A stretch of DNA of 64,000 bases from Candidatus Limnocylindrales bacterium (GCA_044449785.1 JBIOII010000002.1:1141-65140), one strand, 5' to 3'; counted from the stretch's first letter, positions 3,675 through 61,330 are shown. Made by a program: numbers and translations. Notes: generated by a model from the letters alone, not told the origin.

Positions 3675-3762
3675 ACCGGCCGATCCTGGTTCCCCATCGG
3701 CCGCCCGGTTCGCCCGGTTCGCCCGGCGCGGCCGAACTCTTTGGCGAAGCGCGCGGTCGACG

Positions 3763-4284
3763 CTACCAGCGTTCGTAGTGGGCGATCGCCTCGAGCGGCT
3801 TCCGCCCGCCAGCACGCTTGGCCCAGGTCAGCGCCTCGGGCTTGAGGGGGTAGCCGAATGAGAGCAGGAACTCACACCAGTGGTCGGCCGGGTAGCCGAG
3901 CAGTTCCCGGGCCAGCGGCTGGTTGTAGACGGTGGCGGGAACGCTGCCGATGCCGAGCTCCCAGGCGGCGAGCGTCATGTTCTGGGCCGCCCGGCCAAGG
4001 TCCCACATGATCGAGTACGGGGCGTCGTGCGTGGCCGGATCGGGCACGACCAGCGCCACGGCCGCGGCGGCGCCGGCGACGTGGCCGGCGTACGGACCCA
4101 CCTCCGCGAGCCGGCCCAGATGGTCGCGGTCAACGCAGACGATGAAGTCCCAGTGCTGCTGGTTCTTCGAGCTGCCCGATCGCCGTCCCGCGTTGAGGAT
4201 CCGTAGCAGGTGTTCGGGCTGGAGCGGCCGGTCGGTGAACTTCCGGATCGCTCGGGTCGTGTCGATTGCCTCCCAGGTGTCCAT
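3763..4284 (-). CDS. nitroreductase family protein
   Basis: The N-terminus TRAIRKFTDRPLQPEHLLRILNAGRRSGSSKNQQHW matches the nitroreductase-fold signature (R-x-F, S-x-x-N-x-Q-x-W). Confidence 0.8.
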   Translation of the reverse strand: MDTWEAIDTTRAIRKFTDRPLQPEHLLRILNAGRRSGSSKNQQHWDFIVCVDRDHLGRLAEVGPYAGHVAGAAAAVALVVPDPATHDAPYSIMWDLGRAAQNMTLAAWELGIGSVPATVYNQPLARELLGYPADHWCEFLLSFGYPLKPEALTWAKRAGGRKPLEAIAHYERW

Positions 4285-55042: not shown

Positions 55043-56185
55043 CTACATCGAGTCGTCCCCGTCCGCGTAGTGTTTTCGGGCCATGTTGTCGGCCGCGGCA
55101 TTGCGCATAGCCTTCCCGAACCGCCGGTCACGATCGCGCCGCCGGGCCGTCGAAGGCTGCTCGGCAAGCTCGTGGGCGAGCTGGCGGTAGCTCTTCAGCC
55201 GTGCGGCGTCGAGACGGCCCGCCTGGACCGCCGCCCGAACCGCACACCCGGGCTCGAACCTGTGGCCGCAGTCGGCGAAACGGCAACCAGACGCCAGCTC
55301 GACTATCTCGACGAATGTTTCGTCGACGCCTTCGTCCGCGTCCCACAGACCGAACTCGCGCATCCCCGGCGTGTCGAGCAGGAGGGCGCCGTTCGCGAGC
55401 AGGAACAGCTCCCGATGAGTGGTCGTATGCCGGCCCCGGGCGTCATCCTCGCGAATTTCGCGCGTGGCCATCAACTCCTCGCCGGCGAGCCGGTTGAGCA
55501 GGGTCGACTTGCCGACCCCCGACGAGCCGACGAGGGCCAGCGTCCGGCCGGGCTCGAACCACGGCGCGAGAGAATCGATCCCGCCACCGGTCCGAGAACT
55601 GACGGCGACAGCGCGTACCCGGAACTCGGCCTCGAGCCGCGCCACCAAGCCTGTCGCGTTCGGCGCTAGGTCGGCCTTGGTCAGGAGGATCACCGTCTCC
55701 GCACCCGACTCGCGACCCATGGCCACGTACCTCTCCAGCCGGCGGGGGTTCAGGTCGACGTTGAGCGACGTGGCAAGGAAGAGCGTGTCCACATTCGCCG
55801 CGAGGATCTGGGCTCCCGGCCGCGAACCAGCGGCCCGCCGCCGGAATACGGATCGCCGGCTGAGGATCATGTCGATGCGTGCCTCACCATCGTGCGGGGC
55901 ATCGACGCAGCCGACCCAATCGCCGACTGCCGGCAGGTCGCCATCGCCGGCGTTGTGCCGGAACCTGCCGGTCGGAGAGGCCGGGCTCTCGCGCTCCTCG
56001 CCCACCACGTGCCAGATGCCGCGGTGCTGGGCGATCACGCGAGCCGGCCAGAGGCCGTTCCCGACGAACGGGGCGAATTCGGCTGTCCGTCGCTCGTCCC
56101 AGCCCCATGCCCGGAGCGTCTCGATTGGACCGGTAGAGGAGGGGAGCGCCGCCGAGTTCCCGGCGGCGCCATGGTTGGTGGCCAC
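55043..56185 (-). CDS. rsgA: ribosome small-subunit-dependent GTPase A
   Basis: LTKADL, VGSSGVGKSTLLNRL, GRHTTTHRELF, DTPGMREFGLWD, zinc cluster CRFADCGHRFEPGC. GTG 56185 lies 2 nt after the permease stop. Confidence 0.9.
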   Translation of the reverse strand: MATNHGAAGNSAALPSSTGPIETLRAWGWDERRTAEFAPFVGNGLWPARVIAQHRGIWHVVGEERESPASPTGRFRHNAGDGDLPAVGDWVGCVDAPHDGEARIDMILSRRSVFRRRAAGSRPGAQILAANVDTLFLATSLNVDLNPRRLERYVAMGRESGAETVILLTKADLAPNATGLVARLEAEFRVRAVAVSSRTGGGIDSLAPWFEPGRTLALVGSSGVGKSTLLNRLAGEELMATREIREDDARGRHTTTHRELFLLANGALLLDTPGMREFGLWDADEGVDETFVEIVELASGCRFADCGHRFEPGCAVRAAVQAGRLDAARLKSYRQLAHELAEQPSTARRRDRDRRFGKAMRNAAADNMARKHYADGDDSM

Positions 56186-56187
56186 GG

Positions 56188-56988
56188 TCAGCCCACCCTC
56201 TTGAGTTTCCCGGTGCGCTTGGCGTAGCGCTCGGCTTTGCCGAAGCCCCACAGTCCGAGCGGGATAAAGACGAACGCCATGACAAGCAGCGGCCACAGGT
56301 CGGGCAGCAGCTGGCCGACCGAGGCGCCGTCGATGAGCGCTCGCCGAACGGCGTCGAGGACGTACGTCGCCGGGGAGATCCGCGAGATCAGCTGCATCCA
56401 GCCCGGCAGGATCGTGGTCGGGTAGTAGACGCCGCTGATCAGCAGCAGGCACGACTGCAACACGAAGACCATCTGCGAGCCGCGCTCGACCGACATCATG
56501 GGCAGGATCGCAGCCAGCATTCCGATACCGACGAAGCTGGCCGAGCCGACGGCCATGAACAGCGCCGCGGCCCCGATATCCGCCCGACCGAGGTCGAGCG
56601 AGAAGAAGAGCGCCAGCACGATCAGCAGGATCGTCGTGTGGATCAGGCCGTAGATGACCGCGTAAACCGCCGATCCGAGCAGCTGCACCGAGCGCCGGAC
56701 AGGCGCCATCATGGTGTACTCGAGCGTCCCTTCCCAGCGTTCCCAGGTGATCGTGTCGCCGATCGACTGGAAGACCACGGACAGGTAGTTCCAGAAGACG
56801 GCGCCGACGACGAGCAGCATCAAGAGCCGCGTGCTGCCTACGGACTCGCCGATCAGCGAGACCGACAGCGCGCCCGCGACGGCATAGACCAGGAAGGCGA
56901 CTTCCCAGCCGAAATAGCGCTTGGTGAGGTTGAAGTTGCGCTCCACGAAGGCGTAACTGGCACGCGCCTCGCGAGTTAGTGCGATCAC
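56188..56988 (-). CDS. ABC-2 type transporter permease
   Basis: 6 TM segments, ABC-2 pattern. Start moved to GTG 56988, preceded by GGAG. The track start 57075 overlaps small ORF B. Confidence 0.85.
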   Translation of the reverse strand: MIALTREARASYAFVERNFNLTKRYFGWEVAFLVYAVAGALSVSLIGESVGSTRLLMLLVVGAVFWNYLSVVFQSIGDTITWERWEGTLEYTMMAPVRRSVQLLGSAVYAVIYGLIHTTILLIVLALFFSLDLGRADIGAAALFMAVGSASFVGIGMLAAILPMMSVERGSQMVFVLQSCLLLISGVYYPTTILPGWMQLISRISPATYVLDAVRRALIDGASVGQLLPDLWPLLVMAFVFIPLGLWGFGKAERYAKRTGKLKRVG

Positions 56989-57022
56989 GGTGGTATCTCC
57001 TGTGGGCTTGCCGCCCGGCGCC

Positions 57023-57220
57023 TCAGCGTCGGGCGGCAAGCTGGAGTGGGCCGTCGGCCGCGAGCATCGATCCAACCTGGATCAAGCCGTGGCCTACGCG
57101 TCGACGGAACGAGATTCGAGGGATCGGCGCGGCCCCGTCATTCAACCGGAGCCGCAGCCTTCGCTCGATCTCGCGCTGCCGCTGGTTATGGATGTCCATG
57201 GCGATGAGATGGTTCAACAC
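57023..57220 (-). CDS. small hypothetical protein (small ORF B) between ABC ATPase and permease
   Basis: GTG 57220 is preceded by AAGGAA (the track gives ATG 57250). MLNHLIAMDIHNQRQREIERRLRLRL...SFRRRVGHGLIQVGSMLA. Resembles ORF 43268-43489. Confidence 0.45.
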   Translation of the reverse strand: MLNHLIAMDIHNQRQREIERRLRLRLNDGAAPIPRISFRRRVGHGLIQVGSMLAADGPLQLAARR

Positions 57221-57280
57221 GGTGGTTTCCTTTCGATATGAGCGGGTCATGGCCGCGACTGGCCGACCGCCGGCCGACGG

Positions 57281-58162
57281 TCAGTCGGTCGAGTCGGCTT
57301 CGCCTTCCTCGACGTCGTCGTCGAGCGAGCGGCCGGTGTACTTCATGAACACGCTCTCGAGCGTTGGCGCGAGGCCGTGCTCGGTCTCGATGTCGGTCTT
57401 GAGTTGTTCCGGAGTACCCTCCGCGGTCAACCGCCCGCCTGCCAGGATCCCGATTCGCCCGCACAGTCGATCCGCTTCCGCAAGGTCGTGCGTTGTCAGC
57501 ACGATCGTTGCGTCGTGATCGGCCTGGAGCTCCTCGACGAACGCCTGGACGTCCAGCTTCGAGCGCGGATCGAGGCCGGTTGTCGGCTCATCCAGCAGCA
57601 ACAGGGCAGGGCTCGTCAGGAGTGCCCTGGCGATCGCCACCTTCTGCTGCATACCCCGGCTCATCTGCTCGACCGGCCGGTTCATCCGCTTCTCGCCGAT
57701 GCCCAGACGGGCCAGGATCCGGACCGCCTCGCGGCGGGCCTTCCCCGGGTCCAGGCCGTACAACCTCGCCGCGAACGAGAGGTTCTCGGCCGGCGAGAGC
57801 TTCTTGAAGAAGGCGGCATCGACGCTGACCCGATTGATCAGCCTCTTGACCGCCATCTCCTCGTGAACCAGGTCGTGGCCGAAGACCTCGACGCGTCCTT
57901 CGTCGAGCGTCAGCAACCCGCTGACCAGACGGATGAAAGTGGACTTGCCGCTGCCGTTGGCGCCCAGCAGACCGTAGATCTCGCCTCTCTCCAGCCGGAT
58001 CGAGACATCGTCCACGGCCATCACGGGCGGTTTGCGGCGGTCCACCTTGAACCGCTTCGTAGCGTGCTCGACGAGGAGTGCGGCCTCGCCCGCGGGTAGA
58101 GCCCGGATGAACGGCCGGCTTGCTGCCGGCGATTGAGTTGTTTCGAGAACCGCGACGCTCAT
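57281..58162 (-). CDS. ABC transporter ATP-binding protein (ABC-2/DrrA-like)
   Basis: Walker A GLLGANGSGKST, signature MSRGMQQKVA, Walker B LLLLDEPTTGLD. RBS AAAGGGAGG 5 nt before ATG 58162. Confidence 0.93.
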   Translation of the reverse strand: MSVAVLETTQSPAASRPFIRALPAGEAALLVEHATKRFKVDRRKPPVMAVDDVSIRLERGEIYGLLGANGSGKSTFIRLVSGLLTLDEGRVEVFGHDLVHEEMAVKRLINRVSVDAAFFKKLSPAENLSFAARLYGLDPGKARREAVRILARLGIGEKRMNRPVEQMSRGMQQKVAIARALLTSPALLLLDEPTTGLDPRSKLDVQAFVEELQADHDATIVLTTHDLAEADRLCGRIGILAGGRLTAEGTPEQLKTDIETEHGLAPTLESVFMKYTGRSLDDDVEEGEADSTD

Positions 58163-58269
58163 GTCACCTCCCTTTGAGGCATGGCTCGCGGTATGGAGAA
58201 CCGCGAGCGCTGGAAGGGGATTGGGCTCGCGGCCTGCCCTCGAGGCGCACGCCGCCTGACGAGGGCATC

Positions 58270-58301
58270 AAAAAAGCCGGGGCCCGATCTGGCCCACGGC
58301 T
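58270..58301 (-). terminator. intrinsic terminator
   Basis: Minus strand: AGCCG(U)GGGCC-agaucg-GGCCCCGGCU followed by UUUUUU (plus-strand A6 at 58270-58275). Confidence 0.7.
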
Positions 58302-58460
58302 CAGAGGTTCATCCGGCGGCTTTACCGCCTGGCTCTACCTCTCGGTGGGCGCAGACCTCCCGCGCACGACAAGGCCGCCGCCCGCTGGGGCGGTGGACCC
58401 TGGTGCTGTAGCGAGATTGCGCACGACACACCTCTTGCACGGCTGCCGATCTAGCAGACC
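58270..58460 (-). ncRNA. candidate structured RNA (unclassified riboswitch-like leader or sRNA)
   Basis: Bounded by a near-consensus promoter and a strong intrinsic terminator. Several GC helices, no credible ORF. The ends are estimates. Confidence 0.45.
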
Positions 58461-58466
58461 GCGGGG

Positions 58467-58496
58467 AATCTACGCGACGAGCCCAGGACCTGTCAA
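58467..58496 (-). promoter_or_regulatory. sigma-70-like promoter (TTGACA, 18 nt, TAGATT)
   Basis: Read on the minus strand: -35 at plus 58491-58496, -10 at plus 58467-58472. Confidence 0.5.
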
Positions 58497-58545
58497 CGGC
58501 CGGTCCGCTCGGAGCGCTCCGTGGGCGGTTCGCTGCGGGCCGCCC

Positions 58546-59643
58546 TCACGCCGGCCAGTCAGGCGGGTCGAGCCTGAGCCTGTCAGCCGCGGCCACGTCC
58601 CGGCTGCTCTCGCGGACGATCAAGGTGGGCTCGAGGAGAGTCATCTCGGGTACCGCGTCGGCGGACCGCCGAGTCTGGCGGGCCTTCCCGATCAGCTGAT
58701 CGATTTCCTGGACGGCGAGTGCCCCGGCATCGCCGAGGGGCTGGTGGACGGTTGTCAGGGGCGGCCAGAAATGGGACGCCTCGGGAATGTTGTCCACGCC
58801 CACGACGGAGAGCGCCTCCGGCACCGGCTTTCCGAGGCAATGCGCGGCATGCAAAACCCCGAGAGCCATCTGGTCGTTGCTGGCGAAGATCGCGTCGATG
58901 TCGGGGCATGCCTCGATCATCCGGTAGAAGGCCTGCTCGCCGCTCGCGACCGTCCAGTCGCCCTCGACGACGATGCCTTCCTCGACTTTGCGGCCGTGGG
59001 CGCGCATCGTCTTGCGCCAGCCCGCCTGGCGCTCTTGCGCTTCCCACCACGTCAACGGCCCGGTGATGATGCCGACGTGGCGAGCTCCGCCGCCCAGGAG
59101 GTGCTCGGCTGCGAGGCGTCCGATTGCCGCGTTGTCGATGGCGATGGACCGGAGGTAGGGCCGGCCGGCCATGCCGCCGACCATGATCACCGGGACTGGA
59201 ACCTCGGCCAATTGGGTGCGCAGCGATGCTCGGTTCGAACCCACTTCAGGAATGGCCCAGATGATGCCGTCGACCTGGCGCGCCCTCAGGCTGTTGATCA
59301 GGTTGTCGACGTCGTTCGACTCTGGCTCGAGGATCAGGTTGAGCATGATGGCATAGCCCAGCTCGGCGGCCTGGCGCTCGATCGCCGTCAGCACGCGCGA
59401 CGGCCCGAAGTAGTCGAGGCCGTAGGCGACGGCGCCGAGAACGTGGCTGCGACCCTGTGTCAGGCTGCGGGCCAGCATGTTCGGGGCATAGCCCGTCTCA
59501 CGGATGACGTCCTGCACGCGCTGGAAGGTCGCCGGAGCCACGTCCGGACGATTGTTGAGCACGCGCGACACGGTCTGCGTCGAGACCCCTGCCGCCGCGG
59601 CCACCTCTCTGATCGTGAAGCCTTTTCGTTGGGCCATGGGCAA
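58546..59643 (-). CDS. LacI family transcriptional regulator (likely arabinose repressor)
   Basis: N-terminal HTH FTIREVAAAAGVSTQTVSRVLNNRPDVAPATFQRVQDVIRETGYAPNMLARSL plus a periplasmic-binding-protein-like sugar domain. Divergent from the ara operon. Confidence 0.92.
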   Translation of the reverse strand: MPMAQRKGFTIREVAAAAGVSTQTVSRVLNNRPDVAPATFQRVQDVIRETGYAPNMLARSLTQGRSHVLGAVAYGLDYFGPSRVLTAIERQAAELGYAIMLNLILEPESNDVDNLINSLRARQVDGIIWAIPEVGSNRASLRTQLAEVPVPVIMVGGMAGRPYLRSIAIDNAAIGRLAAEHLLGGGARHVGIITGPLTWWEAQERQAGWRKTMRAHGRKVEEGIVVEGDWTVASGEQAFYRMIEACPDIDAIFASNDQMALGVLHAAHCLGKPVPEALSVVGVDNIPEASHFWPPLTTVHQPLGDAGALAVQEIDQLIGKARQTRRSADAVPEMTLLEPTLIVRESSRDVAAADRLRLDPPDWPA

Positions 59644-59689
59644 ACCTCGCTTTTGGGGCTGGCTGCCCCCACACCGGCCTTTCTCCGCG

Positions 59690-59719
59690 TTGACGCAACG
59701 TCAATGCCGATGCTAGATT
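59690..59719 (+). promoter_or_regulatory. candidate ara operon promoter (TTGACG, 18 nt, TAGATT)
   Basis: Seen directly. The -35 is part of the palindrome TTGACGcaaCGTCAA. Confidence 0.5.
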
Positions 59720-59726
59720 GTTCTAT

Positions 59727-59742
59727 CCGTTAGCGCTAACGG
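59727..59742. promoter_or_regulatory. LacI-type operator, perfect 16-bp palindrome CCGTTAGCGCTAACGG
   Basis: Begins 8 nt downstream of the -10 element. The central CG and the GTTAGCGCTAAC core fit LacI-family (AraR-type) operators as I recall them. Confidence 0.65.
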
Positions 59743-59821
59743 GAACGATAACATTGCGGCAGAGTGGGCACAACGGAACGGATCTCAGACAGGACGTTGC
59801 GGAACAGCGGGAGTAGGAACG

Positions 59822-61330
59822 TTGAAGGCGCTTGGCGAGTTCGAGGTCTGGTTACTCACGGGGAGCCAGGACCTGTACGGCGATGAGACTCTGCGGCAGG
59901 TCGCGGAGAACTCCAAGAGAATCGCCGCCGGCTTGGACGAGTCGGAGGCCATCCCCGTCCGCGTCGTGTGGAAGCCGGTCGTCAAGAACGCCGACGCAAT
60001 TCTGGCCGCGTGCATCGAGGCGAGCGCCACCGACAAGTGCATCGGCGTCATCGTCTGGATGCATACATTCTCGCCGGCGAAGATGTGGATCGCCGGGCTG
60101 CAGGCGCTGACGAAACCCCTGCTGCACCTGCACACTCAGTTCAACCGCGATCTCCCGTGGGGCGAGATCGACATGGACTTCATGAACCTGAACCAGGCCG
60201 CCCACGGAGACCGGGAGTTTGCGCACATCGAGGCCCGCCTTGGGTTGCGCCGCAAGACGGTCGCGGGCCACTGGCAAGAGGGCGTCGTTCAGCGCCGCAT
60301 CGGGACGTGGTCGCGAGCCGCGTGCGGGCTGTACGAAGCCAGGCACCTCAAGCTCGCTCGTTTCGGCGACAACATGCGCGACGTGGCGGTGACCGACGGC
60401 GACAAAGTCTCGGCGCAAATGCAGTTCGGGGTCACGGTCAATGGCTTCGGCGTCGCCGATCTGGCCCATTCGGTTCGTGCCGTGCCCGACTCGAAGGTCG
60501 ACGCCCTCGTCGAGGTCTACGAAGCGACATACGACATCGCGCCGTCTCTGCGCGCGGGCGGGGCCGACCGCGAAGCTCTCCACGACGCCGCGCGGATCGA
60601 GGTTGCCTTACGGGAGTTCATGACGGCCGGCGGCTTCGGCGCCGTCACGGACACGTTCGAGAACCTCCACGGGCTCAAGCAGCTGCCCGGGATCGCCGCG
60701 CAGCGATTGATGGCCGACGGCTACGGCTTCGGAGCGGAAGGCGACTGGAAGACCGCCGTACTGGTTCGGCTCGTCAAGGTCATGGCTAGGGGCCTTCCCG
60801 GCGGAACGTCATTCATGGAGGACTACACCTACCATCTCGACCCGGCCGGGACGAGAGTGCTTGGCGCCCACATGCTCGAAGTCTGCCCTTCGATCTCCGA
60901 CGAGAAGGTCTCATGTGAGATCCATCCGCTTTCTATCGGCGGCAAGAGTGACCCGGTGCGGCTGGTCTTCGACGCCGGAACGGGCCCGGCAATCGTCGCC
61001 GCGCTGATGGACATGGGCGACCGGTTCCGGATCGTGGCCAACGAGATCGACCTCGTGCGGCCCGAGAAGCCGATGGTCAGATTGCCGGTTGGACGAGCCG
61101 TCTGGAAGCCGAGACCGGACTTCGCCACGGCTACGGAGAGCTGGTTGATGGCAGGCGGCTCACACCACACGGTCCTTAGCCGGGCGGTTGGGGCCGAGAC
61201 GATCGCGGACTTCGCCGAGATGGCCGGCTGTGAATTCCTGCTGATCGACGGTGAGACGACCGTCGCGAGCTTCAAGAAGGAGCTCCGTTGGAACGAGGCC
61301 TACTACCACCTGTCCCACGGCCTGCGATGA
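59822..61330 (+). CDS. araA: L-arabinose isomerase
   Basis: [57 protein letters not shown]. 502 aa. Confidence 0.94.

Follow-up and report, generated by a model that had tools for sequence, protein, structure and literature searches.

A leader with a conserved upstream ORF and mutually exclusive helices probably acts as a ribosome-mediated transcription attenuator of an ABC-2 exporter operon in Limnocylindria

The window analysed here is a stretch of 64,000 nucleotides of a Candidatus Limnocylindrales bacterium, on the minus strand of which a leader region lies between a LacI-family gene and an operon encoding an ABC ATPase, a small conserved ORF, an ABC-2 permease and the ribosome-assembly GTPase RsgA (Table 1). 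Searches bearing on the substrate of the transporter gave only generic DrrA/ABCA-like matches, and the permease has no relative in the PDB. The small ORF (75 aa), which occupies the gap of about 200 nt between the ATPase and permease genes, has an arginine-rich N-terminal half (...HNQRQREIERRLRLR...) and a hydrophobic C-terminal half, and no Pfam family was found for its product. A link of the leader to the upstream LacI-type gene was considered and rejected, because this gene is present in only 18 of the 80 related loci introduced below. Another promoter-like sequence, TTGACG-18-TAGATT, is located on the plus strand (59690-59719), just upstream of an L-arabinose isomerase gene (59822-61330) and divergent from the LacI-type gene.

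Table 1. Features of the leader, the operon and its surroundings (window coordinates, except in the last row)
Feature	Sequence or content	Coordinates	Strand	Remarks
LacI-family gene	stop precedes leader promoter	59643..58546	minus	
Sigma-70-type promoter	TTGACA (58496..58491), 18 nt, TAGATT (58472..58467)	58467..58496	minus	10/12 match
H0, 5'-terminal stem-loop of the transcript	GGUCUGC-UAGAUCG-GCAGCC	58441..58460	minus	stem kept in both lineage groups
Leader Shine-Dalgarno	AAGAGGUG	58429..58436	minus	contains the second AGAGGU copy of the initial annotation
Leader ORF	GTG start, 29 codons and UAG; MRNLATAPGSTAPAGGGLVVRGRSAPTER	58335..58424	minus	open in 80/80 loci
Hi, hairpin inside the leader ORF	CCACCGCCC-CAGC-GGGCGGCGG	58375..58396	minus	covaries in close group
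Segment A, anti-terminator 5' strand	CGGGAG-GUCUGCGCCCAC	58345..58362	minus	about leader codons 22-27, within the last eight
P2, apical hairpin of the anti-terminator	AGAGGU/ACCUCU around GGCGG-UAAAG-CCGCC	58303..58342	minus	leader UAG (58337..58335) at its base
T1, intrinsic terminator	AGCCG-U-GGGCC / GGCCC-CGGCU stem, then U6	58270..58301	minus	
Segment A', anti-terminator 3' strand	GUGGGCCAGAUC	58286..58297	minus	5' inner arm and loop of T1
S1	GCCCUCG...CGAGGGC with inner hairpin	58236..58266	minus	conserved; compensatory variants in close group
T2	a (GGCCGCGAGCCC, 58234..58223) : c (GCUCGCGG, 58208..58201)	58201..58234	minus	
b	CCGCGAGC	58184..58191	minus	second copy of a, alternative partner of c
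Shine-Dalgarno and start of ATPase gene	AAAGGGAGG (58175..58167), ATG at 58162	58160..58175	minus	
Regulated operon	ATPase, small ORF, ABC-2 permease, rsgA	55043..58162	minus	domains and synteny
ABC ATPase gene		58162..57281	minus	domain ABC_tran
Small conserved ORF		57250..57023	minus	tblastn, same position in 32 loci
ABC-2 permease gene		57075..56188	minus	domain ABC2_membrane
rsgA	ribosome-assembly GTPase	about 56188..55043	minus	domains and synteny
T1 regions lacking the U-run	CAAGUGAUUC-like sequence instead	about 3700-3770 per locus; 2420-2440 in L049		L036, L040, L041, L045, L049, L050, L059, L066, L075, L076, L078 (locus coordinates)

Eighty related loci, one per species, were retrieved with the ATPase protein (71-94% identity), all of them from Chloroflexota MAGs labelled Limnocylindria or Limnocylindrales, the class being uncultured. 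Among the closer of these loci, the intergenic region before the ATPase gene can be aligned, and a core of about 107 nt (window positions 58366..58262) was detected by nhmmer upstream of the ATPase gene and on the same strand in 79 of the 80, the last one having no upstream DNA. Downstream, the permease gene is present in 78 of the 80 loci, and rsgA follows it directly on the same strand in 70, suggesting that the leader may control rsgA as well. When metagenome contigs were scanned for the pattern, 120 additional leader instances were found, 16 of which were too short to evaluate, and in about 97 of the other 104 an ATPase gene was found downstream on the same strand. The distance from the terminator T1 to the ATPase start is 105-210 nt, and the same-strand linkage is invariant in about 180 loci. 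This constant linkage to the same operon indicates that the leader is a cis element of the ABC operon and not a free-standing gene. A covariance-model search of the 64-kb window detected one copy of the leader motif and no further ones.

The exceptions that were examined (L099 and L133) are deletion relics of the operon, and the motif was otherwise found in the metagenomes only at this operon. The orphan leader of L099 (9030-9560) is left from an operon deleted after about 20 ATPase codons; its -35 element is mutated and its leader stop codon has changed from TAG to CAG. The orphan leader of L133 (1-330) is fused to the P-loop region in the middle of rsgA, and L189 gave an identical model match.

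The promoter of the leader agrees with the consensus at 10 of 12 positions, where shuffles are expected to yield 0.1 such matches, and no better promoter match was found in 40-60 kb. Of 79 loci, 78 have a site of the form TTGAC[AG]-N17/18-TAnnnT at a distance of 124-138 nt upstream of the core; no match was found in L053. Transcription would start about 7 nt after TAGATT, so that the stem-loop H0 would form the 5' terminus of the RNA; double changes were found at 2 and 4 pairs of its stem in the two lineage groups, and its loop is variable. The leader folds better than its dinucleotide shuffles, none of which equalled it (z = -4.3 for 201 nt and z = -5.6 for 308 nt). A cmscan of positions 57000-60000 against Rfam at E<=10 identified no family, the best match being Xoo2, which scored 27.8 bits (gathering score 45) and covered the terminator only.

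The initial annotation, which was made from the window alone, had described a structured RNA running from promoter to terminator and fitting none of the RNA families considered, and the structural elements that it listed were recovered where it had placed them. These include the promoter, the helices CUGC-UAGAUCG-GCAG (58460..58441), CCGCCC-CAGC-GGGCGG (58396..58375) and AGAGGU/ACCUCU around GGCGG-UAAAG-CCGCC, the GC stem with its U6 terminator (58301..58270), several repeated 6-9-mers, the ribosome-binding site and ATG of the ATPase gene, and two further hairpins, the first of which is S1 and the second the pairing of c with b. The absence of a known family held as well, given the Rfam result, and the RNA proved to be conserved among relatives.

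The same annotation found no credible ORF in this RNA. In this respect it was wrong, since a frame of 29 codons, preceded by a Shine-Dalgarno sequence, is kept in all 80 related loci. As frames of 30 codons often stay open by chance at 68% GC, the case for this ORF rests on its conservation across loci. The leader frame is open over 25-30 codons in 80 of 80 loci; across this span, the two alternative frames are open in only 39 and 47 of the 80. In almost all loci GAGG or GGAGG is found between promoter and core, 3-9 nt upstream of the chosen ATG or GTG (11 nt in L053), and the stop codon, which is TAG in 71, TGA in 7 and TAA in 2 of the 80 loci, has a fixed position at the P2 base, within the motif GGUAG. 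The loci encode 79 distinct leader peptides, of which only the C-terminal tail G-R-[S/G]-[A/V]-P-[T/I] is conserved, the N-terminal two thirds showing no conservation. All three codon positions are substituted at equal frequency, and this holds for the variable part as well as for the tail. A frame that is kept without codon periodicity suggests selection on frame, start and stop and none on the amino-acid sequence, so that translation itself matters and the peptide sequence does not; judging from sequence comparison, the leader ORF carries the signature of a regulatory uORF, which argues against a functional small protein. The latter was rejected on account of the missing codon periodicity and the absence of a Pfam match for the peptide. 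Searches of the leader peptides for a run of regulatory codons found none, the sole candidate feature being the rare GGG-AGA-UCU on segment A, and no known arrest motif was apparent in the peptide.

A second ORF, starting from a conserved GAUGCCC after T1, was also considered and rejected, as it has no Shine-Dalgarno sequence, its length ranges erratically between 3 and over 400 codons, and the distant group lacks it. The hairpin Hi, which lies inside the leader ORF, shows 7 and 13 double changes in CCGCY/RGCGG in the close group only, and no equivalent was found in the consensus of other lineages; it is possibly an RNA polymerase pause hairpin.

The end of the leader ORF overlaps the 5' strand of a long helix which competes with the terminator. 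Segment A, located within the last eight codons, pairs with segment A' (58357..58345 with 58297..58286), and A' is at the same time the 5' inner arm and loop of T1, so that the A:A' helix, capped by the hairpin P2, and the terminator exclude each other. The A:A' duplex was found in 79 of 79 loci, with energies from -13 to -23 kcal/mol, and carries lineage-specific compensations (GAUCUG/CAGAUC, AGGUG/CACC, GAUCCG/CGGAUC, GGUCUG/CGGACC, GAACUG/CAGUU and GAUUUG/CAAAUC), as well as a matched one-nucleotide deletion on both strands in L052. In a model-guided alignment this helix is 92.4% paired, with double changes at 6 pairs, and the upper stem of P2 is 83.5% paired, with double changes in 6 of 7 pairs (for example GGCGG/CCGCC to GGGGC/GCCCC); the lower stem of P2 is variable (68% paired) and the P2 loops vary freely. 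Taken together, A:A' and P2 are 84% paired and have 16 pairs with double changes; none of 500 shuffles was as good, and slid controls reached 25-43%. Segment A pairs with its own A' at -18.7 kcal/mol, against -16.2 kcal/mol with permuted partners, and none of 2000 permutations was as good.

In an alignment of 82 sequences the 10-bp GC stem of T1 is 99.4% paired and shows essentially no variation, as would be expected where one strand is constrained twice, and U5-6 follows it in most lineages; within 20 kb it is the only terminator match with an uninterrupted U6. When segment A was blocked in constrained folding, P2 and T1 formed, and when the 3' arm of T1 was withheld, A:A' and P2 formed. The mean predicted energies of the two states are nearly equal (-38.8 kcal/mol for P2 with T1 and -38.9 kcal/mol for A:A' with P2). 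From the end of the leader ORF the distance is 38 nt to A' and 65 nt to the end of the U-tract. A mutually exclusive pairing of the attenuator type had been suspected in the initial annotation, and such a pairing exists and covaries, but between strands other than those proposed there. The upstream AGAGGU (58435..58430), which had been put forward as the alternative partner of ACCUCU, is part of the leader Shine-Dalgarno sequence, and neither of the two partners is kept outside the closest relatives.

In one sub-lineage the T1 hairpin is intact and the U-run is lost, so that termination there may be non-canonical or moved elsewhere. The eleven loci concerned, in which another sequence stands in place of the U-run, are given in the last row of Table 1.

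The invariant bases of the leader belong to the terminator arm, the anti-terminator arm or the stop codon (GAGCC being the outer arm of T1 and UAG the leader stop), and only CGGGAG is left over. This hexamer (58357-58362, minus strand) forms the 5' edge of segment A, is nearly invariant and Shine-Dalgarno-like, lies outside any covarying pairing and encodes Gly-Arg through the rare codons AGA or AGG. The codons GGG-AGA/AGG-UCU of segment A are rare, AGA and UCU making up 7% and 4% of their codon families, and arginine elsewhere in the leaders is mostly encoded by CGC.

Two further structures separate T1 from the ATPase gene, S1 and the hairpin T2, which was found in nearly all loci with energies from -14 to -30 kcal/mol and with compensatory variants in L007, in L034, L037 and L067, and in L036 and L040. 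A U-run follows T2 in a few lineages only (L062 and L080, L058, L069, L043). T2 resembles a duplicate of the T1 arms. A relay was considered whereby the 3' arm of T1, once released, would capture the 5' arm a of T2; it was unsupported, since constrained folding predicted this capture in only 25 of 70 loci and T2 still formed in 46 of 70. T2 has no role in the attenuator model proposed below.

A conserved uORF overlapping segment A, a covarying anti-terminator and a terminator before the first gene were all found at this locus, and the leader is therefore probably a ribosome-mediated (leader-peptide) transcription attenuator which controls the ABC-2 exporter operon. What the sequences show is the open frame, both competing helices with their covariation, and the linkage in cis; the direction of control and the signal are inferred. 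A ribosome moving in step with the polymerase, while decoding codons 21-29 or waiting at UAG, would occupy both segment A and the P2 base on its 5' side. If A stayed covered while the remaining 65 nt were transcribed, T1 would form by pairing of A' with its 3' arm, and transcription would stop at the U-tract, producing an RNA of about 190 nt. If no ribosome were loaded, or if it lagged or stalled within the first 20 or so codons, A would be free to pair with A' as it emerges, and the long anti-terminator formed by A:A' and capped by P2 would exclude T1 and allow read-through into the genes of the ATPase, the small protein, the permease and RsgA. Read-through with a lagging or absent ribosome means that the operon would be induced by impaired translation, and ribosome-targeting antibiotics, starvation and ribosome shortage might be the inducing conditions. 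The rare GGG-AGA/AGG-UCU codons and the Shine-Dalgarno-like GGGAG fit a design that would hold the ribosome on A.

A classical 1:2 anti-antiterminator was rejected, as duplexes of A with the upstream leader are no better than those of shuffles (z near 0). A 1:2 pairing of GCGCA with UGCGC was predicted by RNAalifold in the close group only, without double changes, and may possibly represent a lineage-specific option. As a 1:2 pairing is not conserved, the state without translation is predicted to read through, unlike in attenuators of the trp type.

Compared by mechanism only, the closest analogue appears to be the bmrB leader with bmrCD. BmrCD belongs to another class of ABC exporters than the separate ATPase and ABC-2 permease found here, and the two systems also differ in phylum. 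The bmrB leader of the Bacillus subtilis bmrBCD operon is reported to control a multidrug ABC transporter by ribosome-mediated transcriptional attenuation, which requires translation of the leader, responds to translation stress with induction by ribosome-targeting antibiotics, and is affected in its decision by rare codons (PMC4191407). A small leader ORF before ABC transporter genes, alternative stem-loops and an intrinsic terminator are common to both systems, while the bmrB terminator lies inside the leader coding region and the Limnocylindria ORF ends 38 nt before A' and 65 nt before the end of the U-tract. With the trp, his and leu attenuators the Limnocylindria leader shares a leader peptide, a 2:3 anti-terminator that excludes a 3:4 terminator and a fold that would be decided by ribosome position. 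In contrast to them, it has neither a run of regulatory codons nor a conserved 1:2 pairing, its ORF runs through segment 2 and does not end before it, and the genes controlled are those of an exporter and not of a biosynthetic pathway. Translation of a short uORF also controls a terminator before a resistance or efflux gene in the msrD/mef leader MsrDL (PMC10314930) and in mef(E)/mel (PMC4335068); these systems use drug-specific nascent-peptide stalling motifs, whereas no such motif was identified in the Limnocylindria leader.

Another possible explanation is that the leader is a riboswitch, as the initial annotation had proposed alongside a small RNA. In this case A:A' and P2 would be the aptamer, a toxic ligand would stabilise them, block T1 and switch the exporter on, and the ORF would be incidental. 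The architecture looks like that of an ON-riboswitch, with a covarying hairpin set inside a helix that rivals the terminator; exporter genes are common riboswitch targets, and CGGGAG together with parts of the internal loops is incompletely explained by the attenuator. However, the Rfam search gave no match at E<=10, the loops and the lower stem of P2 vary freely, and the invariant unpaired bases are accounted for by the T1 outer arm (GAGCC) and the stop codon (UAG), which leaves no orphan loop core for a ligand pocket. In addition, a Shine-Dalgarno sequence, start, frame and stop maintained in 80 of 80 loci over 79 different peptides are hard to explain if the frame is untranslated. A riboswitch is for these reasons highly improbable, and the structured leader is most likely not a ligand-sensing one; of the initial proposal, the structured leader from promoter to terminator stands, and its reading as a ligand-sensing element or an ORF-less sRNA does not, given the uORF and the linkage in cis. 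Even less credible is an independent small gene merely adjoining the operon, either with the 190-nt transcript acting in trans as an sRNA or with the 29-aa product as a functional small protein. The leader does have its own strong promoter and terminator, and transcripts ending at T1 would build up as a distinct small RNA. Against this stand the same-strand linkage to the ATPase gene, constant over 105-210 nt in about 180 loci, the presence of a single copy in the 64-kb window and the failure to see any other promoter in the window downstream of T1 and ahead of the ATPase gene, as well as the peptide itself, which has neither codon periodicity nor a Pfam match.

It is also conceivable, if quite improbable, that the peptide is the sensor, the tail G-R-[S/G]-[A/V]-P-[T/I] with its rare AGA and UCU codons causing an arrest or pause and a small molecule, an antibiotic or a tRNA modulating the dwell of the ribosome on A. 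No other part of the peptide is conserved, the tail is encoded with rare codons, and GGGAG(A/G) is Shine-Dalgarno-like; the bmrB attenuator is likewise reported to be tuned by rare codons (PMC4191407). Nevertheless, the tail is equally conserved at all three codon positions, and its Ser/Gly and Ala/Val changes follow the compensations in A', which points to a constraint at the level of RNA and not of the peptide. A ribosome-mediated attenuator, in which the position of the ribosome on A would decide between the anti-terminator and T1, remains the preferred reading.

The leader is best read as a new attenuator family that is absent from Rfam, with a mechanism that is itself well known; as this mechanism is found in textbooks, the gain is incremental. 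It also illustrates that in GC-rich genomes a leader seemingly devoid of ORFs can hide a conserved regulatory uORF. An extension of the attenuator model, which we regard as unlikely, would be that the leader serves the whole class as a sensor of translation capacity: the slow patch of GGGAG and AGA-UCU would hold the ribosome on A, and lost coupling of transcription and translation would switch on the exporter, the arginine-rich small protein and RsgA via T1 and T2. If true, such a sensor would tie efflux and ribosome biogenesis to translation stress. For Limnocylindria, an abundant and uncultured class of Chloroflexota from soil, peat and freshwater, the attenuator offers a model of how a core operon may be regulated, and one that can be tested. 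Should the switch respond to ribosome-targeting antibiotics, this would make the exporter a candidate for an inducible resistance determinant of soil Chloroflexota.
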